From Formosa sp. Hel1_33_131 (GTDB lineage: Bacteria; Bacteroidota; Bacteroidia; Flavobacteriales; Flavobacteriaceae), in assembly GCF_001735745.1 (NCBI RefSeq), contig NZ_CP017260.1, positions 1,830,001 to 1,862,000 of the forward strand: DNA of 32,000 bases, written 5' to 3'. The position numbers were made by a program, and so were the translations under genes. Positions 1,620 through 32,000 of this stretch are shown in pieces. A model generated the notes under the pieces. It made no database searches. It was not told the origin of the DNA and saw only the letters and a program-made list of their open reading frames with translations. Each line of letters opens with the position of its first letter. The stretch's first letter is position 1.

Positions 1620-4112
1620 TTATTTCGGGTCTAAAATTAAATTGATCCGTTCCACAGCATCCCTCAAGTGAATTTTATTCATGCCATTCGAAGTTTTTGA
1701 AATGCTCGAGCTGATCAGGTTTCTCAAGGTTTTCAATTCTGCTCTTACTATCGCACGAATATCAGATTGACTGGTATTGACAGCCGTCGATTTCACATAA
1801 TCACTGCCCCGTCGTTTGCTCTGATTTTCGACAGTCATCAAATATGCCAATCGATCCATATGAGCCCGTTGTAAATTCCGTCGGTACGTGTCTATTTTTC
1901 GTCCTGAGTACAACTCACTCCAAATGCCTGTTCTCAAATCCCGCGTCATACTTCGGAGGGTATATGCATCAGAACCATTCATGGTTTCATTTTCAATCAT
2001 GCGCGCCATCTTCCCTAAACTCAAAATTGTTTTTAAGGTTCGTTCTTGCAGTCTTCGGATGCGCTCAATGGAACCGGAATATTCAATACGTTCAAAAATG
2101 GTTGGGTCAATCAACCATTCCGGAGTTTGGAATAATTGTGCGTTGATAAATTTCAACGCATTTTTTTGATGTTCCTTATCTACATAAGTATAGACTGCGC
2201 CTGCTTGATCGGCAGTTTTGTACTGCTCATAAACACCCCCTATATTGTTGGCAACATGGCCCATATAACGACTAAATTGAGAGAGCAATTGCCCGTACAT
2301 ATCATTTAAATCAGAGTAATCTTCTCCTGTTTCCGTCGTCCACTCGATGAGGTTTGGAACAATACGTTTTAAATTTTTAATCCCATAGGTACTTGCTAAA
2401 ATAGCGTCATCTCCAAGGTCTTCTGTTTGTGAACTTGGATCTACGACATCCCCCACTTGTTGATGACCAAAACGGTACATCGGATCGCCAGCATGTTCCA
2501 AAATCCAACTGTTAAGCGTCTCTTTTTCGGCTTCGGCAGTCGTATCTAAAATGGGTTTATACCCCCAAGCAATGGCATACTTGTCATACACTCCAACATC
2601 TGGCATCAAGGCCACGCCTGTATCTTCGGGTTGCGCGATGTAATTGAAACGGGCATAATCCATAATGGAAGGTGCCGTTCCATATTTTTGAGTAAAAGCA
2701 GCGTTGCGTAAATCTTCGACTTTATAGGCACAACTACTTCCCATATTGTGAGGCAGTCCCAAGGTATGACCAACTTCGTGAGCCGATACAAATCGGATCA
2801 AACGTCCCATCACTTCATCTTTAAATTCTGGCATTCGTGCTTCCGGATTGATAGCCGATGTTTGCACAAAAAACCAACGTCTTAATAAGGTCATCACATT
2901 GTGATACCAATTGATATCACTTTCTAAAATCTCACCTGTTCGTGGGTCACTTACATGAGGGCCATTGGCATTCGGAATTGGAGAGGCGAGGTAGCGCACC
3001 ACCGAATAACGAACATCTTCTGGGCTCCATTCAGGATCTTCTTCTGGGGTTGGTGGATCGGCTGCAATGATGGCGTTTTTAAAACCAGCCGCTTCAAAAG
3101 CAACTTGCCAATCCTCAATCCCTTGTTTGATGTATATACGCCATTTTTCAGGCGTCGCACGGTCCACATAATATACAATCTTTTTTTTAGGTTCTACAAG
3201 CTCACCTGCTTTGAATTTCTCTAAGTCTTCCTCTTTAACTTCCAGTCTCCAACGGTCCAAAAAGGTCACCTCTTTACTGCGGTGATCGTCCAAGCCATAA
3301 TCCACTTGACCCCTTGCAAACCAACCCACACGCTTGTCAAAATAGCGACGTTTCATCAACTTTTCAGGCAATAAAATCATAGAATTATTAATCTCTATAG
3401 AAATGGTTCCTGTACTAGAATTTGAAGGAGCATTGGTCGCCGCATAGGTTTTAACGTGGCGCGCTTCAATATTTTTAGGGTAACTTTTTACACTTTCTAT
3501 AAAGGATTTCTCACTTTCTAAACGGGTCGCTTTATAGCGTTTTCTGGAACGGGAAGACAGTCCGAGTGCTTTGACATCTTTATTAAATAAATCAGTCACA
3601 TCAATCACCGTCGCAGTAGAGTCAACACTAAATGCTTTTATAGGAAAGGTATATAAAACAGGTTCAAAATTTGAATTGACGACCGCCTCATGAACGGGGA
3701 GGGAATCGGCTGCAAAAACTTCATAAGAAACAACTCTTAAAATTACTTTTTTGTCTTTCTTTTGCCATCTTAAAACTTGTGTGTTTTGTTTTCCACCACC
3801 AAATCCAACGCCTGAAGCTGTTTTGGAGATACGCGTTACCATCAACATTTCTTTGTCAAAAAGTGTGTCAGGGATTTCATAAAAAAAGCTATCGTCTATT
3901 TTATGAACCGTAAACAATCCTTCATCTGATTGTGCGTCTTTAGTGATCACCTTTGCATAAGGCTTGATAGCGTCTTTTTTAGGTTTTGGATCTGGTTTTT
4001 TAGCTGCTTTGGCAGCTTCTGCCTTTCTTTTAGACGTTGATTTGATGCTGATACACGACTCAATAGAGACGAATGCAAGTAGCAAAAGGGTGAATAAAAT
4101 TAACTTTTTCAT
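1620..4112 (-). CDS. Secreted zinc-dependent metalloprotease (Met-zincin type, large Bacteroidota family)
   Basis: 830-aa ORF with an N-terminal signal/lipoprotein-like leader (LLLLAFVSIESC). It carries the HExxH zinc motif HEVGHTLGLPHN. Size and layout resemble the 'zinc-dependent metalloprotease' family common in Flavobacteriia. Confidence 0.85.
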   Translation of the reverse strand: MKKLILFTLLLLAFVSIESCISIKSTSKRKAEAAKAAKKPDPKPKKDAIKPYAKVITKDAQSDEGLFTVHKIDDSFFYEIPDTLFDKEMLMVTRISKTASGVGFGGGKQNTQVLRWQKKDKKVILRVVSYEVFAADSLPVHEAVVNSNFEPVLYTFPIKAFSVDSTATVIDVTDLFNKDVKALGLSSRSRKRYKATRLESEKSFIESVKSYPKNIEARHVKTYAATNAPSNSSTGTISIEINNSMILLPEKLMKRRYFDKRVGWFARGQVDYGLDDHRSKEVTFLDRWRLEVKEEDLEKFKAGELVEPKKKIVYYVDRATPEKWRIYIKQGIEDWQVAFEAAGFKNAIIAADPPTPEEDPEWSPEDVRYSVVRYLASPIPNANGPHVSDPRTGEILESDINWYHNVMTLLRRWFFVQTSAINPEARMPEFKDEVMGRLIRFVSAHEVGHTLGLPHNMGSSCAYKVEDLRNAAFTQKYGTAPSIMDYARFNYIAQPEDTGVALMPDVGVYDKYAIAWGYKPILDTTAEAEKETLNSWILEHAGDPMYRFGHQQVGDVVDPSSQTEDLGDDAILASTYGIKNLKRIVPNLIEWTTETGEDYSDLNDMYGQLLSQFSRYMGHVANNIGGVYEQYKTADQAGAVYTYVDKEHQKNALKFINAQLFQTPEWLIDPTIFERIEYSGSIERIRRLQERTLKTILSLGKMARMIENETMNGSDAYTLRSMTRDLRTGIWSELYSGRKIDTYRRNLQRAHMDRLAYLMTVENQSKRRGSDYVKSTAVNTSQSDIRAIVRAELKTLRNLISSSISKTSNGMNKIHLRDAVERINLILDPK

Positions 4113-12393: not shown

Positions 12394-13914
<1,521 letters not shown>

Positions 13915-14005
13915 TAGAGAAAGACGACTAAAGGTAAATTGTGAAGGAAAGAAATTGTTTGTTCTCATAGCTGTTAATTAAAAAAGATACCAATAAAAAA
14001 AGTAG

Positions 14006-14079
14006 AGTCTCATAGCTCAGCTGGTTAGAGCGCTACACTGATAATGTAGAGGTCGGCAGTTCGAGTCTGCCTGAGACTA
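14006..14079 (+). tRNA. tRNA-Ile (anticodon GAU)
   Basis: Hand-folded cloverleaf. The acceptor AGTCTCA pairs with TGAGACT. The anticodon stem-loop is CTACA-CTGATAA-TGTAG and the T arm is GGCAG-TTCGAGT-CTGCC. No encoded CCA. Confidence 0.93.
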
Positions 14080-14204
14080 CTAGTTTTCACCAAGGGCAGA
14101 GAGATTTGCCTGGCTTGCCACGACGCAGGCGTGGAGACTACTAGTTTTCACCAAGGGCAGAGAGATTTGCCTGGCTTGCCACGACGCAGGCGTGGAGACT
14201 ACTA
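14073..14204. repeat. 61-nt tandem direct repeat (2 full copies plus a 10-nt third start) beginning inside the tRNA-Ile 3' acceptor strand
   Basis: GAGACTAC starts at 14073, 14134 and 14195, giving a period of 61. The unit is GAGACTACTAGTTTTCACCAAGGGCAGAGAGATTTGCCTGGCTTGCCACGACGCAGGCGTG, and the two full copies look identical by eye. Each unit contains the hairpin CCACG-acgcagg-CGTGG. Confidence 0.9.
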
Positions 14205-14294
14205 ATTTTTTTATATAATGGAAAATCTAGAAGTTGGGTTAGTTGCGAGTTTTTACTCAAAACTCATAACTAATAACTCATAACTTAAAGAAAT

Positions 14295-14368
14295 GGGGGA
14301 TTAGCTCAGCTGGCTAGAGCGCCTGCCTTGCACGCAGGAGGTCATCGGTTCGACTCCGATATTCTCCA
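14295..14368 (+). tRNA. tRNA-Ala (anticodon UGC)
   Basis: Hand-folded cloverleaf. The acceptor GGGGGAT pairs with ATTCTCC and includes the G3:U70 Ala identity pair. The anticodon loop is CTTGCAC and the T arm is ATCGG-TTCGACT-CCGAT. Confidence 0.93.
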
Positions 14369-14425
14369 CAACGGTTATTGTTACTGATATTATTTATCAG
14401 TGGTGATACGCCACACGATCATTGA

Positions 14426-14445
14426 CATATTGAAAAAGATACATG
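14426..14445 (+). other. 5' strand of the 23S precursor processing stem (pairs with 17424-17444)
   Basis: CATATTGAAAAAGATACATG is complementary to CATGTATTTATTTTCAATATG at 17424-17444, apart from a 1-nt bulge and one mismatch. The two strands bracket the mature 23S, as RNase III processing stems do. Confidence 0.6.
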
Positions 14446-14542
14446 AAACATTAGATATATTTTATATATATTTAATAGAAAAAGTAAATTAAAATTGTTG
14501 CGAGCTAGCAATAATTAGAGTAAACTCATTAAAAAGACAAAA

Positions 14543-17379
<2,837 letters not shown>

Positions 17380-17423
17380 GGACGTTTTTTTATATTACGT
17401 TTACTCATTATTTACTAAGACAT

Positions 17424-17444
17424 CATGTATTTATTTTCAATATG
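17424..17444 (+). other. 3' strand of the 23S precursor processing stem (pairs with 14426-14445)
   Basis: See the partner feature at 14426-14445. The complementarity was read directly from the sequence. Confidence 0.6.
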
Positions 17445-17515
17445 TTAAGAAATTGTTCAGTCAGAAGGCTGAATACTGTAACGACCCTACAAATAGTAGT
17501 AAGTTACAAATAACC

Positions 17516-17623
17516 CTAAGGTGGTTATTGCAATGGGGCTCACCTCTTTCCATCCCGAACAGAGCAGTTAAGCCCATTAGCGCCGATGGTACTACATTTG
17601 TGGAAGAGTAGGTCACCGCCTTT
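17516..17623 (+). rRNA. rrf: 5S ribosomal RNA
   Basis: Conserved CCCATCCCGAACAGAGCAGTTAAGCCC and GCGCCGATGGTACT blocks. Helix I forms between AAGGTGGT (17518-) and ACCGCCTT (-17622). Ends are approximate. Confidence 0.93.
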
Positions 17624-17629
17624 TTTGAG

Positions 17630-17977: not shown

Positions 17978-18358
17978 TTATTCATATTGTTGACATTCAA
18001 ATATTAAGTGATTCTTAATTTCGATTGGTTTAACAACAATAGAATTCAGTTTTTGATTTGGAAATCCACCAACGAGATATTTTTCAGATTCCAATTTATC
18101 CATCCATTTTAGAAACTCTTTTAGTTCAACCATTTTCACGATACAATTTTTCCATTCAGTTTTAATTAATTCTTGTGCGAATTCCAATTCTGGCCAGATT
18201 GGAATAATCATTTCGTCATCAGTTCCACAAGTGACATAATTCCCTTTTTTGTCCGCAATCAGAAAAATCTGCTCAAAATCTGCAACTTTTCTTATGAGAT
18301 ATCCATACCGTTCTTTGGACTCAAGTTTGAACACACTTTGTAATTGTTTAATATGCAT
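17978..18358 (-). CDS. DUF2750-like small cytoplasmic protein
   Basis: 126-aa ORF with an ATG start. The pattern ...IFLIADKKGNYV......IIPIWPELEFAQ.....W......VELKEFLKWMDKLE....LVGGFPN resembles DUF2750 as I recall that family. It starts 12 nt after the upstream gene ends, so an operon is likely. Confidence 0.55.
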   Translation of the reverse strand: MHIKQLQSVFKLESKERYGYLIRKVADFEQIFLIADKKGNYVTCGTDDEMIIPIWPELEFAQELIKTEWKNCIVKMVELKEFLKWMDKLESEKYLVGGFPNQKLNSIVVKPIEIKNHLIFECQQYE

Positions 18359-18370
18359 AAAAATTAGTTT

Positions 18371-18898
18371 TCAATTCAGTTTTTTATTTTTCAAAATTTC
18401 AAAACCAAAAAATCCTTTTTGAGTTTCAAATTCAACAGTTTTATAAGAATTCATTTTTTCATAAAATTTAGCATAAAATACTAATTCCTTATTTTTTCCT
18501 TCATAGTTTATTGTAAAAACTGGTTGTTTTTCGCCTGTCGAATATTTTGATCCACCTTTTATCCAAGTTCTCCTAATTATTTCATAAGATTTTTTTTCTA
18601 CATTCTGTTCCGCAAAATAATAGTTTGTAAGTATAAAAATTGAACAAACTATAAAACCAAAACCACAGATATAATGCATCAATGAATAAATGTAAAGTCC
18701 AATTCCACTATATTCATAAGTTTTTCTATAATTTTTGAAGTCAATTATAAAACTAATAATTCCAATAGTTAAAACAATTCCAATTAAAATATTTACATCA
18801 ATAATTGTGTTTCGATAAATAATTGTCTGCCAAACCATTAAAAATAAACCCAAAATAAAAATAGTAGGATAAAATATTTTTCGTTGTTTTTTCGTCAT
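18371..18898 (-). CDS. Membrane protein (about 4 TM helices plus a C-terminal soluble domain), family not recognised
   Basis: ORF-track entry 18371..18949 begins at a TTG. I place the start at ATG 18898 (MTKKQRKIFYPTIF), which leaves the E2 left arm outside the CDS. Confidence 0.6.
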   Translation of the reverse strand: MTKKQRKIFYPTIFILGLFLMVWQTIIYRNTIIDVNILIGIVLTIGIISFIIDFKNYRKTYEYSGIGLYIYSLMHYICGFGFIVCSIFILTNYYFAEQNVEKKSYEIIRRTWIKGGSKYSTGEKQPVFTINYEGKNKELVFYAKFYEKMNSYKTVEFETQKGFFGFEILKNKKLN

Positions 18899-18905
18899 TT
18901 TCGGC

Positions 18906-19048
18906 AATGTGTGGTAACGTTTTTGTATATAGTTTGTTGCGTGTTTCAAGTACCTAATTTAGCAAATACAAACCGAATAGAAAATCCGCAGGAATTTTCC
19001 AAGTAAGCGATAACTAGCAATAAATTATATACGTTGTTACCATACGTT
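18906..19048. repeat. Structured inverted-repeat element E2 (143 nt; attC-like or MITE-like), complete
   Basis: The outer arms are AATGTGTGGTAAC (18906-18918) and GTTACCATACGTT (19036-19048). Spacers are GTTTTT on one side and GTT on the other. The inner arms are GTATATAGTTTGTTG (18925-18939) and CAATAAATTATATAC (19018-19032). The central hairpin is GAAAATCC-gca-GGAATTTTC (18980-18999). E2 fills the whole gap between two minus-strand genes. Confidence 0.7.
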
Positions 19049-19050
19049 TT

Positions 19051-19539
19051 TTATTCCATTTTTTTTAATTCTGATTTTTTTACAACAATTGTATTTCCCC
19101 AAATATCTCCTAACCGTTGATTTTTATCTGTGTTTTTTATTGTTATGAATCCGATTAGTCCAAAAAAGAACATATCGATTGGGTCAAGTAAATGTCTTTT
19201 AAAAGATTGTCCAAAAGTCAGTTTTTCGTCCGTTCCGCTAAAAGTTGTATCGTCAGATGATTTTCGGATAGACACAGGTTTTAGTCCAACTAATAAATTC
19301 CCAAGTGTTGCTCCGAACCATTGCTCAAATCCGATAGTCATTATTCCCCAAAATAGCATTGGAATTAATGCAGGAAGACCATTTAAAGAAAATCCACCTT
19401 CACCGTTTGGTTCTCCAAAAGAATAGCCAAAGTAAAAAAAGAAAGCAAAGATTATAACGTAGTCAACAATTCCTGCTAAAATTCGGTCTCCAATATTTGG
19501 TTCAGTTTTAAATTTAGTAGTTAAGTTTGTTTCGTTCAT
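19051..19539 (-). CDS. RDD-family membrane protein
   Basis: N-terminal R..AG.VD motif (GDRILAGIVDYVIIFAFFF), TM helices, and the C-terminal QRLGDIWGNTIVVKK typical of RDD domains. Start placed at ATG 19539 (MNETNLTT). The ORF-track start at 19551 is a TTG. Confidence 0.7.
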   Translation of the reverse strand: MNETNLTTKFKTEPNIGDRILAGIVDYVIIFAFFFYFGYSFGEPNGEGGFSLNGLPALIPMLFWGIMTIGFEQWFGATLGNLLVGLKPVSIRKSSDDTTFSGTDEKLTFGQSFKRHLLDPIDMFFFGLIGFITIKNTDKNQRLGDIWGNTIVVKKSELKKME

Positions 19540-19550
19540 CGTTTTTCTCA

Positions 19551-19574
19551 AATGTATGGTAACTCGTTATATGG
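19551..19574. repeat. Solo left arm of the E-element family (E3 half-site)
   Basis: AATGTATGGTAAC (19551-19563) followed by tc-GTTATATGG. I could find no matching right arm further right. On the minus strand this reads GTTACCATACATTTG, which contains a TAnnTTTG-type -7 box (TACATTTG) just upstream of the RDD ATG. Confidence 0.55.
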
Positions 19575-28055: not shown

Positions 28056-28147
28056 TTTTCGATTTGATTAGTCGCAGCGGGGGATGACGCTGGGGTATAT
28101 TTAGGCGTAAATTATCTATTGGTGTGTTTCTAGTCTCTAAATTTTAT

Positions 28148-28576
28148 TTAACATATGTACTTAAAAAGAAATTTCTTTTCAATAGCATCATACTTCACTC
28201 TCACCATAACAGTCCAAGAATTTAAGAAGCCATCTTTTTCATTTCGTTCAGTGTAATTGAATACGATAGCCACAGTACCACTATATATCGTATAATTGGG
28301 GTCTAAAGGTGCATATCCAAAAGCTGCTGCAAACCTCGATAATTCTTTAGTCCCTGCAATGTTTTTTGGGATGACTAATAATTTGTCTTGATGATAGACT
28401 TCATAAAAATTTCGTTTACCAACAGGAAAACGGTTTTCCGTCACATAATATATCTTCCAACCATAGATTGGGTCTTCAAATAATAACTTCTTGGATTTAT
28501 AATTACCCATACTCGTTAGTGCAAGCATGATGAAGGCAAATACTCCGATAAAAATTAGGCTTATTTTATTTTTCAA
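28148..28576 (-). CDS. Small membrane-anchored protein, family not recognised
   Basis: 142-aa ORF with an ATG start and a single N-terminal TM helix (LIFIGVFAFIMLALT). No motif recognised. Confidence 0.5.
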   Translation of the reverse strand: MKNKISLIFIGVFAFIMLALTSMGNYKSKKLLFEDPIYGWKIYYVTENRFPVGKRNFYEVYHQDKLLVIPKNIAGTKELSRFAAAFGYAPLDPNYTIYSGTVAIVFNYTERNEKDGFLNSWTVMVRVKYDAIEKKFLFKYIC

Positions 28577-28601
28577 ATGTTATTTGTTTAGATGAGAAGG
28601 G

Positions 28602-29126
28602 TTAAGTAGTTTTAAGTTTAATTAACTCTAATGTCTCGTATTCAAGAGCTCTTTTACCTGAGCTTGTAATCAACTCAAGTTTTCTTCTTTTTATATAAAT
28701 TTTGTTTTTTCCTTTCCCAATCGAATAGTTTATTTCCCCTAAATCATTAAAATCAAGGATTTGAGGTCTTGAACCAAAAGGAATCTCTTTAATTGTATAA
28801 TTCAAACAGTACATATAGTTTTTTCATTAGTTGGAAAGCTTTACTGTAGATGGCAGTTTTGTTTTTTTGTCCGTCAATAATACAGGCCGTCGGAACATTG
28901 TCTGGTATTCCATCGTAAATATTTCTGCAATAAGTGGTTACAAATTTATCTATATATAATTTGTTTCGCCGCATCCAGCCCCACTTGCATGCCGGGAAAC
29001 GGTGCCGACTCATCACTACTCAAATTAATTCTCCTATCATCCATTATAAAAAAGGGGGTTGAAAGTTTCGTTTTTTTTAATTCACTAATTAATTTTCGAG
29101 CTTTATTTTCAACTACTTTCCAATCA
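28602..29126 (-). pseudogene. Possible frame-disrupted gene (three consecutive minus-strand ORF fragments in different frames)
   Basis: Three fragments follow one another. Fragment 1 is about 29126-28951 (...FDWKVVENKARKLISELKKTKLSTPFFIMDDRRINLSSDESAPFPGMQVGLDAAKQIIYR*). Fragment 2 is ORF 28789..29016 and fragment 3 is ORF 28602..28814. The frame changes coincide with a (TA)4 run near 28951-28960 and an A6 run near 28818-28825. Fragment 1 has no upstream ATG. Confidence 0.3.
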
Positions 29127-29136
29127 AATAAAAGTA

Positions 29137-30225
29137 TTAATAGCTAAATGTTTCAGTAATTTTACTACTGATAAAATTGTTTTCATTGCGTTGGTCAAAA
29201 ACCTTCGCTATGGTCAATGTATAATCTTTAAAATAATGTTTGAGTTCAGCAACTTTATACATATTTGAAGCTTTATATAACACAAAATCTCGATGAAAAC
29301 GAATTTTAATCTGCCCTTTATTTTCCTTCTGTAAACAATCACATAAATACCAATAAGTTAGGGCAAAGTAAAAATCACTACTTAGTTCTAGAGGGCTATA
29401 GTCTTCTGAACTCGGTTTGAGAAATCTATCGGTATCTTCTTCCAATAAAGCCAAAGCTTTTGTAAACTGTCTTGCTTTAATACAATACAGAATCGGTTCA
29501 TGATAAGAATCTGAATCTTTTTCCTTTTCTTTAATATATTTTTCAAACATTTTTTTTGCTAATTTGATGTTATCTGATTTCATCAAAAAAGGGAGCACGT
29601 AAGCGTAAGCTCCTATAGGTACAGAGCTACAGGTGTGTTTTTTAGTGAATAGGGGTTCACCAACTTTTAATGCTGTTTCTAAAAGTTCGGTATGACAATA
29701 AAGCTTGAACTTAGCATATATCCTACAAGCTTTACAATCAGACATATTGTTTGTGGTTTGAATCTTAGTGGCACGTTTGTAAAACCCTTTGGCTTCTTCA
29801 AGCATTCCTAACTCCAAATAGACTCTAGACTTGTATTCATAAATTACTTTTTTTGAATGGCCTTCTTTTAAATATCGCTTTTCCATGTCTTTAACTGCAT
29901 CGAAAATTTGTGTTTTAGTAATGTTTGGAAAATCTGGTAAATCCATGATAACCCATTTGTATTTCCACAATAAAGAATGGTCATCTGAATATTCTGGATG
30001 TTTGTCTAATAAAGATAATAGTTGTGGAAAGATTGAAATAGAAATCAATGTATTTCCTGACCATTGAGCTGCTTTAATTAAATCGGAACCTACTTCTAAT
30101 TGCAGTTCTAAATCTTTCATAGATTGTGTTAATGCATAGGCTTTCTGTAAAAGTTCCGTTCTACGAGTCGACTCATCTTTGTAATGAGAAGCTTCACCCA
30201 AAAGTTTATTTAAATCTGTTTTCAT
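29137..30225 (-). CDS. All-alpha, TPR-like repeat protein (partner of the Hsp90 paralog)
   Basis: 362-aa ORF with an ATG start 6 nt after the Hsp90-paralog stop (TAA-ACACCA-ATG). It has no signal peptide and is helical and repeat-like. Segments such as SRVYLELGMLEEAKGFYKRA and LAKKMFEKYI resemble TPR motifs. The fold call is tentative. Confidence 0.5.
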   Translation of the reverse strand: MKTDLNKLLGEASHYKDESTRRTELLQKAYALTQSMKDLELQLEVGSDLIKAAQWSGNTLISISIFPQLLSLLDKHPEYSDDHSLLWKYKWVIMDLPDFPNITKTQIFDAVKDMEKRYLKEGHSKKVIYEYKSRVYLELGMLEEAKGFYKRATKIQTTNNMSDCKACRIYAKFKLYCHTELLETALKVGEPLFTKKHTCSSVPIGAYAYVLPFLMKSDNIKLAKKMFEKYIKEKEKDSDSYHEPILYCIKARQFTKALALLEEDTDRFLKPSSEDYSPLELSSDFYFALTYWYLCDCLQKENKGQIKIRFHRDFVLYKASNMYKVAELKHYFKDYTLTIAKVFDQRNENNFISSKITETFSY

Positions 30226-30231
30226 TGGTGT

Positions 30232-31992
30232 TTATGATTTAAGGTCAATTAAACGAACCATACTTTCTCCAATAATGTTTAATTCTTTTTTTGTAATAGG
30301 ATGATGTCCCATCATTAGTGATTGAACATAAAGGATCTTGATAAATGTTTTTGTCAATTCAGCTTTCTTCTGGCGTGTTAATTTTTGGACCAATGAATTG
30401 TTATAATTTAACACCAATTGTGCTATTGCAACAGGTTCTATTTCTTTGCTCAAATTATCCATAATATTTTTCCACGGCGTATCTTCTTCGGTTTCCTGCA
30501 TATCTCTTAGTATTTTCATTTGGTCATTAATATGAAACAAACACGGAATATCATCGGGAGCAAATTTTTTCAATTGAAAAGTACAATTATAGGGCAGTAA
30601 GGTCTCATTGCCCAAATCGACAAAATCGAAGAATTCATTTCGTTCCTCAAGACTTAATTCTTCAAAAATTTGAATCATATCATTGGCACTTACGGAACGT
30701 ACAGGCCATTCTGGGAAACAGACACTTGCTTTTTCTAACAGTTCAATACAATAGGCATAACCGGCATTGATTAGATGTTTGTTTTGAGCAATTGCAATAG
30801 GAATGAGCTGCCTGAATTCATCAACGTTGTCAACAAAATCTATATATTTTTGTGATTCAAAAAATGTAGGAAGCGTTATGTATCCCAATGTGCTAGGAAA
30901 CTCTATAAAATTAATCATCAATCGGAAAAAATCTTCATTTTCAATGGCGAGCATCTTAATGGGATTGTGATGAATACTGATGAGTTTATTGAGTTTTTCG
31001 GGACTGTGTTTTGAAAGTTCTTTCAAATAACTTTTGAGTTGCTCTCCAAAATATTCTTTTGTTTGCATTAAGTTATCATCCTCATAAAACGATTCGCGAG
31101 AGGCTGTGGGTTTTAGAGTGTTTGTATTGATGATGCAATAGGCAAATACCGCCCAGTCAGGTAGTATGCTGGCTCCACTTTCGACTACCAACATATTTTT
31201 TAAATAAATGAGGTGGTTTTTTTTTGAGGATATCCCTGTTGAATAGGGTAAGATATAAGCAACCCCTGCGTTGCTATTATCAGGGTTATAAAGTGGCACG
31301 GCATCAAAAAAATCGATCTCAAAATGCTTAGCCCCCAATTCTAGTAATTTTTCTTTGGGGGTATTATTCGCAAAAGGATTGATCTCGGCATTTATTTTAT
31401 TAGATTTAGTCCCAACACTAAGCGTAGTTGGGAGGAATTGTCCGTAGTGGCGAACAATTTCTGTTAATGAATCTATTTCAAAAAAGGACGAAGGCTCTTT
31501 CGCTTTCAAATATACTTTTGTTCCTGTTTTTATCTTTTGCTTTATTTTTTTAAGGGTGTAAGTGCCATCATTTTTTCCGTGCCACTCTAATGCGTCTCCT
31601 CCTTTTGCGGATTGTGTGATTAGAACAATTTCATCAGTTACCATAAAGCAAGAGAGAATCCCGATGCCAAATTGCCCGATATAATCATTACGTTCAAAAT
31701 CAATTTTTTTTTGATTTCGTTTTAATGAAGACCCTATTTTTGCCAAGAATTGATGGATTTCATCTTCGGTAAGTCCCTGACCATTATCTTCTATACAAAT
31801 TTGAGGATGTTGATCGTCTTCAAAAATCTCAAAATGTATATGCCCTTGAATGTTTTCAGAGTTTTTACGCATCTGAATGGCATCTACTCCGTTTTGAATT
31901 AATTCTCGGATAAACACCTTTTCTTCACTATACAAATGATTGCCAAGGATGTCAATCATTCCTCCTAAATCTACTTGAAATGTATGTTTCAT
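30232..31992 (-). CDS. Divergent Hsp90/HtpG-family GHKL ATPase paralog
   Basis: 586-aa ORF with an ATG start. Bergerat-fold motifs are present: N box FIRELIQNGVDA, G1 box IEDNGQGLT and G2 box IGQFGIGILSCFMV. The middle-domain motif LKPTASRESF resembles HtpG LPLNVSREIL. It is collinear with HtpG but shorter and much more divergent than a housekeeping htpG. Confidence 0.75.
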   Translation of the reverse strand: MKHTFQVDLGGMIDILGNHLYSEEKVFIRELIQNGVDAIQMRKNSENIQGHIHFEIFEDDQHPQICIEDNGQGLTEDEIHQFLAKIGSSLKRNQKKIDFERNDYIGQFGIGILSCFMVTDEIVLITQSAKGGDALEWHGKNDGTYTLKKIKQKIKTGTKVYLKAKEPSSFFEIDSLTEIVRHYGQFLPTTLSVGTKSNKINAEINPFANNTPKEKLLELGAKHFEIDFFDAVPLYNPDNSNAGVAYILPYSTGISSKKNHLIYLKNMLVVESGASILPDWAVFAYCIINTNTLKPTASRESFYEDDNLMQTKEYFGEQLKSYLKELSKHSPEKLNKLISIHHNPIKMLAIENEDFFRLMINFIEFPSTLGYITLPTFFESQKYIDFVDNVDEFRQLIPIAIAQNKHLINAGYAYCIELLEKASVCFPEWPVRSVSANDMIQIFEELSLEERNEFFDFVDLGNETLLPYNCTFQLKKFAPDDIPCLFHINDQMKILRDMQETEEDTPWKNIMDNLSKEIEPVAIAQLVLNYNNSLVQKLTRQKKAELTKTFIKILYVQSLMMGHHPITKKELNIIGESMVRLIDLKS

Positions 31993-32000
31993 ATTAACTT

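Follow-up and report, generated by a model that had tools for sequence, protein, structure and literature searches.

Analysis of a 32,000-nt stretch of the genome of Formosa sp. Hel1_33_131 (NZ_CP017260.1, positions 1,830,001-1,862,000 of the forward strand; assembly GCF_001735745.1), referred to below as the window, revealed a gene for an Hsp90 paralog of 586 amino acids (aa) which is directly followed by a gene for a 362-aa protein resembling tetratricopeptide repeat (TPR) proteins. The pairing of these two genes is near-obligate in both directions, with the same strand and the same order, and it is maintained across phylum-level divergence. We consider it probable that the pair encodes a dedicated two-component module, in which the Hsp90 paralog is accompanied by a TPR-like co-chaperone or adaptor; the second protein is called here the partner. 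The Hsp90 clade concerned was known and functionally unexplored. The partner family, for which Pfam and NCBIfam have no model, is new, and no earlier description of its pairing with Hsp90 was found.

A first-pass annotation of the window had proposed a module of this kind. It described two open reading frames (ORFs) with a gap of 6 nt, the first encoding an Hsp90 paralog that kept the GHKL/Bergerat motifs and was more divergent than a housekeeping htpG product, and the second encoding an all-helical, TPR-like protein. The ORF list and the junction sequence confirmed both frames and the gap, and the data presented below agree with the remaining points: the paralog is divergent and its ATP-site residues are conserved family-wide, the neighbour is conserved in at least five phyla, and structure prediction places it among helical-repeat proteins.

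The conservation of the pair was analyzed in both directions. In the forward test a profile of the Hsp90 clade was run against one genome per GTDB species and 80 loci were kept, three of which had no downstream sequence and were left out. A partner homolog was found immediately downstream and on the same strand in 71 of the 77 evaluable loci; it was full-length in 64 of them and cut by the end of the contig in the other seven. In the reverse test a partner profile, built from a 10-sequence alignment, was run against metagenome contigs. Again 80 loci were kept. Upstream sequence of 170 nt or more was available for 72 of them, and in 68 of these the gene directly preceding that of the partner, on the same strand, belongs to the Hsp90 clade. 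The phyla bearing the pair are Bacteroidota, Planctomycetota, Acidobacteriota, Myxococcota and Bacillota. It was found in Tenacibaculum, Chitinophaga and other Bacteroidota, in many Planctomycetota, and in Pyrinomonadaceae and Blastocatellia; it was also present in Corallococcus, Archangium, Hyalangium, Vitiosangium and Bradymonadales, and in Paenibacillus, Saccharibacillus, Tumebacillus, Thermoactinomycetaceae, Tissierella and Clostridiaceae.

The two genes are also closely spaced. In the window the junction reads TAA-ACACCA-ATG, with both ORFs in one frame. No terminator-like site was seen between the genes in a promoter/terminator scan, in which counts were not above those of shuffled sequences and which was applied to a phylum whose promoters are not sigma-70-like. 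At least 33 of the 64 complete pairs have gaps of -4 to +15 nt between the ORFs, and many of these junctions are ATGA overlaps. Clustering of all flanking ORFs detected no third gene family shared across phyla. Only local synteny was observed, confined to Myxococcota, Paenibacillus or Pyrinomonadaceae, and the genes involved were of mixed nature (alpha/beta hydrolase, M14 peptidase, AraC regulator, metallo-beta-lactamase (MBL)-fold protein, Ser/Thr kinase, aldo-keto reductase). Adjacency of two genes that keep their order and strand over phylum-level divergence, with nothing else retained around them, is a pattern typical of proteins acting as one machine.

The two proteins have diverged together. 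Matrices of pairwise identity for Hsp90 and partner, calculated for 62 loci, correlate with r=0.91 (0.63 for distant pairs), and the maximum reached in 500 label permutations was 0.16. The mean pairwise identity is 35% for the partner and 50% for Hsp90, indicating that the partner evolves faster. Three loci carry tandem duplicates of the partner gene after a single Hsp90 gene: L183 (L183:5044-9020) and L184 (L184:6235-10210), which hold the closest relatives of the window pair, and L084 (L084:8469-10770). The tandem partners of L183 and L184, 362 aa long, are 55-57% identical to each other and 76-81% identical to their orthologs in the other contig; the single partner encoded in the window is about equidistant (57-59%) from both paralogs. 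In a Planctomycetaceae metagenome-assembled genome (L076) the downstream partner is split into two ORFs (L076:7819-8922), owing to either a frameshift or an assembly error, and weaker partner-like matches are seen upstream of the Hsp90 gene (L076:4975-5777).

The 586-aa protein is an intact, full-length Hsp90 of the clade described by the equivalog model NF010683 ('HSP90 family protein', PRK14083) and is distinct from canonical HtpG. Its score against NF010683 is 625.5 bits with a cut-off of 455, and the match extends from end to end, residues 1-584 corresponding to profile positions 4-594 of 604, so that the window protein is a member of this clade without any difference from it. The HtpG equivalog NF003555 gave 167.9 bits, far under its cut-off of 371, and matched residues 2-381 only. 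Among Pfam models the GHKL domain HATPase_c_3 was recognized (2.4e-10) together with a sub-threshold match to HSP90. Homologs of the clade number more than 2,500 at E<=1e-10 and are about 40-45% identical across Bacteroidota, Planctomycetota, Acidobacteriota and Bacillota.

Comparison with solved structures at the sequence level produced matches to TRAP1 (8e-25) and HtpG (3e-17), which cover the N-terminal and middle domains; the likeness to solved Hsp90s ends after approximately residue 336. The AlphaFold2 (AF2) model of the paralog, obtained with a 46-sequence alignment, has a predicted local distance difference test score (pLDDT) of 86.5 and a predicted template modelling score (pTM) of 0.75. 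It superposes on full-length HtpG, cytosolic Hsp90, TRAP1 and GRP94 over about 620-650 columns with template modelling (TM) scores of 0.6-0.74. Because the model superposes over full-length Hsp90s, all three Hsp90 domains are present in the 586-aa protein.

Residues R29-E30, Q33, N34, D37, G71/G73, G106-x-F108-G109-x-G111 and R299-E300 are invariant in 46 members of the Hsp90 clade, and D69, T296, A297 and S298 are conserved in at least 90% of them. The (T)ASRE motif, which includes R299, aligns with the 'NLSRE' of TRAP1. From the TRAP1 alignment and established knowledge of Hsp90 we take E30 to be the equivalent of E34 in E. coli HtpG and of E33 in the yeast protein; R299 is presumably the counterpart of yeast R380, which contacts the gamma-phosphate of ATP. 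Judged by these motifs, the Hsp90 paralog is presumably ATPase-competent. The C-termini of the same 46 members consist of an amphipathic ...LLNxGLLxLIExG helix and a variable tail.

The AF2 model of the 362-aa partner (pLDDT 89.3, pTM 0.86) is confident and all-helical: it comprises about 18 helices, into which a small beta-hairpin is inserted near residues 305-324. Foldseek comparison with the PDB identified the TPR domains of LGN/Pins and OGT and designed CTPR/PPR proteins with a probability of 1.0 and E of about 5e-4. The TM scores of these matches were only 0.3-0.5, indicating that no close relative has a solved structure. The Pfam model TPR_8 scored 19.4 bits on the window protein, under the cut-off of 25.7, and gave matches at E<=0.01 in 8 of 29 diverse members of the partner family. 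None of these 29 matched a dedicated Pfam or NCBIfam family. The model predicts that the partner is a non-enzymatic solenoid scaffold.

An exhaustive profile search found 2,329 representatives of 50%-identity clusters in the partner family at E<=0.001, and 1,849 at E<=1e-10. With few exceptions these proteins stand alone and are 320-400 aa long. The sole protein with a large extra region among the best 150 matches was P0145 (675 aa, metagenomic), in which the partner domain at residues 18-355 is followed by a C-terminal extension of about 320 aa without a Pfam match. The copies that we looked up in NCBI and UniProt are named 'hypothetical protein', 'Uncharacterized protein' or, generically, 'Tetratricopeptide repeat protein'. 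The partner is thus a member of an uncharacterised family without a curated model, whose genes are found almost exclusively directly downstream of NF010683-type Hsp90 genes.

Three cysteines, C164, C167 and C199, are kept in all 62 locus partners and in all 29 family representatives. K90, G140, P203, R346 and N347 are the other family-wide invariants; in the locus set P203 is present in 60 of 62 proteins, R346 in 61, N347 in 60, D158 in 59 and D344 in 56. The conserved positions fall into the motifs LLWxYKW, (S/N)DCxAC(E), CxEVP(H)xT and FDxRN(G/E)N. Position 204 is occupied by His in 36, Glu in 11 and Gln in 5 of the 62 proteins, and by Ile in the window protein. In the AF2 model the N-terminus of helix 165-179 carries the CxxC, and C199 comes just ahead of helix 201-209; these are corresponding ends of two consecutive 'A' helices in the solenoid. 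With this geometry the triad is a candidate metal or redox site that would link neighbouring repeats. Coordinates of the two genes, their junction and the conserved segments are collected in Table 1.

Table 1. Position of the Hsp90-partner gene pair and of its conserved elements in the window
Feature	Position	Strand	Basis or remark
Hsp90 paralog gene, 586 aa	30232..31992	(-)	ORF list; member of NF010683 with N-terminal (GHKL ATPase), middle and C-terminal domains
TPR-like all-helical partner gene, 362 aa	29137..30225	(-)	ORF list
Spacer ACACCA, 6 nt	30226..30231	(-)	Separates the stop codon TAA of the Hsp90 gene from the start codon ATG of the partner gene
Codon of E30, presumed catalytic glutamate of the RELxxN motif	31903..31905	(-)	R29, E30, Q33, N34 and D37 invariant in 46 members
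Codon of R299, middle-domain Arg of the (T)ASRE motif	31096..31098	(-)	R299/E300 invariant; T296, A297 and S298 at least 90%
Cys-triad segment, (S/N)DC164-x-A-C167 and C199-x3-P203-(H/E/Q; Ile here)-x-T	29629..29736	(-)	Family conservation
C-terminal signature of the partner, F-D-x-R-N-(G/E)-N, residues 343-350	29176..29199	(-)	Most conserved linear motif of the family
End of the VOC/glyoxalase gene, last bases and stop TAA (31994-31996)	31994..32000	(-)	160-aa gene running past the window; lineage-specific, outside the conserved module

A distant version of the pair is present in Listeria. In the L. seeligeri locus L007 a 602-aa Hsp90 with the HATPase_c_3 domain is followed by a 320-aa partner homolog, beside the ferritin gene fri; this homolog is 23% identical to the window partner (E 4e-19). 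Partners from Listeria lack the beta-hairpin insert and are some 40 residues shorter. It has been reported that lmo0942 adjoins fri in L. monocytogenes (PMC3534079) and that lmo0941 encodes a hypothetical protein of unknown function (PMC6901971). Judging from the flanking genes, the L007 pair probably corresponds to lmo0942 (HtpG) and lmo0941 of L. monocytogenes. In L007 (L007:9075-9824) a SUKH/SMI1_KNR4-family gene comes straight after the partner gene, followed by one for a low-molecular-weight phosphotyrosine phosphatase, and the Dps-like ferritin gene is located upstream of the Hsp90 gene in divergent orientation. None of these flanking genes (SUKH, phosphatase, ferritin) is conserved beyond Listeria.

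The clade to which the window Hsp90 belongs has been seen in phylogenies. Chen, Zhong and Monteiro (2006) divided the bacterial proteins into Hsp90 Groups A, B and C. The members from Bacteroidetes fall into B and C, those from Firmicutes and Actinobacteria into A and C; Bacteroides fragilis and S. coelicolor each have two Hsp90 copies of different groups, and the B. fragilis HTPG2 is 588 aa long (PMC1525184). Press et al. (2013) described hsp90B and hsp90C as long-branch clades, which were then left out of their functional analysis (PMC3708813). The NF010683 clade is probably the same as Group C/hsp90C, an equation based on the agreement in length (586 and 588 aa) and on the fit of the distribution in Bacteroidetes, Firmicutes including Listeria, and Actinobacteria. 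The literature found on the hsp90C clade is phylogenetic only and does not mention a conserved neighbour. No description of the Hsp90-partner gene pair was found in full-text literature searches, the coverage of which did not extend to subscription-only papers.

The paralog shares the three-domain fold of canonical HtpG (Hsp90A; TM score 0.72 with the HtpG chain of 9a6t) as well as its ATPase motifs, and differs from it in the low score with the HtpG equivalog (168 bits with a cut-off of 371). There is a second difference: according to reviews and primary papers, no co-chaperone of bacterial Hsp90 has been identified (for example PMC7926864), whereas the NF010683-type clade has an almost obligate neighbour. 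A parallel to such a neighbour is provided by the eukaryotic TPR co-chaperones (Hop/Sti1, PP5, FKBP51/52, Cyp40, CHIP, Tah1), which are likewise helical-repeat proteins dedicated to Hsp90 and which act in client recruitment or cycle regulation, as the partner may do. These co-chaperones dock a three-repeat carboxylate-clamp TPR domain onto the C-terminal MEEVD of Hsp90. The window partner differs from them in being a single solenoid of about 360 aa that has a Cys3 site and lacks an attached enzymatic domain, and no sequence kinship with them was detectable beyond isolated sub-cut-off matches of TPR motifs. Among bacterial systems, Hsp33 is a holdase with a zinc-cysteine redox switch. The chaperedoxin CnoX/YbbN, composed of thioredoxin and TPR parts, works with GroEL/DnaK (PMC10490939). 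CnoX and Hsp33 thus offer bacterial precedents, the former for assistance to a major chaperone by a TPR-containing protein and the latter for a Cys/zinc switch under oxidative stress; the partner has neither a thioredoxin nor an Hsp33 domain, and the resemblance is conceptual only.

The following scheme is the most probable explanation of these data. The Hsp90 paralog would be an ATP-hydrolysing, dimeric-type chaperone of the ancient 'HSP90 family protein' clade, and the two genes would be co-transcribed and translationally coupled. The partner would bind the Hsp90 paralog directly and would either recruit or select clients by means of its solenoid groove or tune the ATPase cycle. The invariant Cys3(+His/Glu) site might hold a structural or regulatory metal, or might act as a redox switch gating the function of the partner. 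Where tandem partner paralogs follow one Hsp90 gene, they could serve as adaptors of differing specificity. In its strongest form the proposal is that the partner is the first bacterial Hsp90 co-chaperone, a Cys/metal-switched adaptor with a docking mode other than EEVD which has been co-inherited with its Hsp90 since before the major phyla split; we put this forward tentatively, as something that may well turn out otherwise.

A number of observations weigh against a co-chaperone or adaptor role. Six loci (L014 of Flexithrix, L025, L029, L043 of Limnoglobus, L065 and L085) have the Hsp90 gene and at least 2.2 kb of downstream sequence and no partner, and four contigs (L113, L132, L134 and L144) have the partner and no Hsp90 upstream. 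No natural fusion of Hsp90 and partner was found among the best 120 Hsp90 matches and the best 150 partner matches. An EEVD-like acceptor motif is not conserved at the C-termini of the 46 clade members; since the clade has no acidic C-terminal tail, the EEVD/carboxylate-clamp mode of binding is excluded. The would-be fourth ligand of the cysteine site is the Ile at position 204 in the window's own partner, and the metal site is proposed from sequence alone. The likeness to eukaryotic TPR co-chaperones is at best a functional analogy and not a homology. Finally, adjacency alone would fit a client or regulator relation equally well.

The last point leads to the alternative which best survives, namely that the partner is itself a dedicated client of the Hsp90 paralog or is matured by it, as a metalloprotein might be if its Cys3 site had to be loaded or kept in the reduced state, or that it is a stress sensor or regulator which the paralog holds inactive, in the manner known for Hsp90 and its signalling clients. 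The adjacency data speak for such a relation as much as for a co-chaperone, and the invariance of the Cys triad and the faster evolution of the partner (35% against 50% mean identity) are in line with it. So are the stress and detoxification genes that adjoin the pair in some lineages: VOC/glyoxalase (vicinal oxygen chelate, VOC) and DJ-1/PfpI genes in Formosa, Dps/ferritin in Listeria, and aldo-keto reductase and MBL-fold genes in Myxococcota. However, these neighbours are not conserved across phyla, family searches revealed no output domain (DNA-binding, enzymatic or signalling) in the partner, and it would be unusual for a chaperone to be kept for a single client over five phyla. We regard this alternative as rather unlikely.

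It is less probable still that the two proteins are merely co-expressed in a shared stress response and do not come into contact. The evidence for their association is genomic linkage, to which there are ten exceptions, and this much would accord with simple co-expression. On the other hand, adjacency exceeds 90% in both directions over phylum-level divergence, stop/start overlaps are frequent and no other gene is kept with the pair, features which are typical of subunits or obligate partners.

The first-pass annotation had also regarded the pair as part of an accessory islet, AT-rich and with small orphan or frame-broken ORFs downstream, and had considered a role in defence or as a stress island. 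The claim of AT-richness is only partly true: the pair is moderately AT-rich, with a GC content of 0.345 and a GC content at third codon positions (GC3) of 0.307 for the Hsp90 gene and of 0.315 and 0.251 for the partner gene, as compared to 0.379±0.032 and 0.373±0.044 for other large ORFs in the window. The low GC3 hints at most at past transfer. In PADLOC-DB v2 no full-length defence match was obtained; only the N-terminal 120 residues or so of the Hsp90 paralog gave weak matches (E 4e-14 to 1e-2) to models of TmtA (Tiamat) and of a type II restriction enzyme, a generic GHKL resemblance, while the partner had no match at all. The NCBIfam BbrUII/HgiDII model scored 41.7 bits with a cut-off of 550. 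A scan of 2.9 million viral contigs yielded one true homolog of the module, located at a contig end. A role of the pair in conflict or anti-phage defence, with a GHKL ATPase working alongside a TPR sensor, is therefore highly improbable in spite of these weak matches, the somewhat low GC3 and an Abi_2 gene about 9 kb away in related contigs: the Hsp90 is complete with N-terminal, middle and C-terminal domains and is not a MORC or paraMORC protein, neither protein has an effector domain, the flanks are of housekeeping or metabolic nature here and in other phyla without recurrent defence genes, the co-divergence of Hsp90 and partner follows taxonomy, and the module is nearly absent from viral contigs, so that the defence interpretation is largely refuted by the genomic context and the accessory-islet one is not supported.

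Contigs with an identical Hsp90 (L001 and L090-L093) show what lies beyond the window. A 160-aa VOC/glyoxalase gene with matches to Pfam Glyoxalase_2 and Glyoxalase stops 1 nt before the Hsp90 start, and the window end accordingly reads ...TAA T ATG. The earlier suggestion that the operon may extend beyond position 32000 is thus correct for this lineage. This gene was considered as a conserved third member of the module and rejected, as it is absent upstream in L183 and L184 and in other phyla; it is a lineage-specific addition outside the conserved module. The site just upstream of the VOC gene varies between strains: L090 (L090:4898-7718) has a 500-aa ORF and a 419-aa protein with a Por_Secre_tail domain, marking cargo of the type IX secretion system, while only a 139-aa ORF or its fragments are present in L091 (L091:7230-7650) and L001 (L001:86-505). 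The DJ-1/PfpI gene is located a further 4 kb or so upstream.

Downstream of the partner gene there are three small ORFs (75, 70 and 142 aa), two PAP2 phosphatase genes and a tail-specific protease gene; further genes of the window include a class II aminoacyl-tRNA synthetase, LipB, RNase HII and an rRNA operon. The small ORFs are located at 28148-29016 on the (-) strand (142, 70 and 75 aa, the last two overlapping), and gene calling predicts them in every related contig; the 142-aa product begins with a hydrophobic segment. They match no Pfam family, and similarity to the partner family was not detectable. The duplicates in L183 and L184 raised the idea that these ORFs are a decayed second copy of the partner gene. 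This was rejected: tblastn gave one weak match of 28.5 bits, and a clade-specific partner profile scored -1.1 bits on 28060-29136, within the range of shuffled sequences (95th percentile 1.0). The description of these ORFs as frame-broken is likewise not supported by this shuffle-level score.

Elsewhere in the window, a complete rRNA operon (16S, two spacer tRNAs, 23S and 5S) occupies 12394-17624 on the (+) strand and explains a GC peak of 0.45-0.52. Right after the 5S rRNA gene there is an AT-rich patch (17978-19551, (-) strand; ORF GC 0.24-0.33, GC3 down to 0.17) encoding a DUF2750 protein, a weakly recognized cytochrome b561-like protein and an RDD-family protein. The contigs L090-L093 carry Abi_2 and DUF3800 genes at the corresponding flank of the rRNA operon, which thus appears to be variable. 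An 830-aa protein with the architecture DUF5118-DUF5117-DUF4953 (Met-zincin; 424 bits on DUF4953) is encoded at 1620-4112 on the (-) strand; it is a predicted metalloprotease and is unrelated to the pair.

Overall, the partner is at present the strongest candidate for an Hsp90 co-chaperone in bacteria, and its pairing with Hsp90 offers an approach to the function of a widespread and unstudied Hsp90 clade. The clade is present in tractable organisms, namely Listeria (probably as lmo0942/lmo0941), Paenibacillus, Corallococcus and Archangium, and Bacteroides fragilis can be added according to the earlier phylogeny (PMC1525184). With over 2,000 clusters at 50% identity and an invariant Cys triad, the partner family merits a family model and a name of its own. 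The finding bears on whether the dependence of Hsp90 on co-chaperones arose in eukaryotes only. If the partner is indeed the first bacterial co-chaperone, the partnership of Hsp90 with a helical-repeat protein would not be a eukaryotic invention, and the several partner paralogs that accompany one Hsp90 in some lineages would correspond to different sets of clients.

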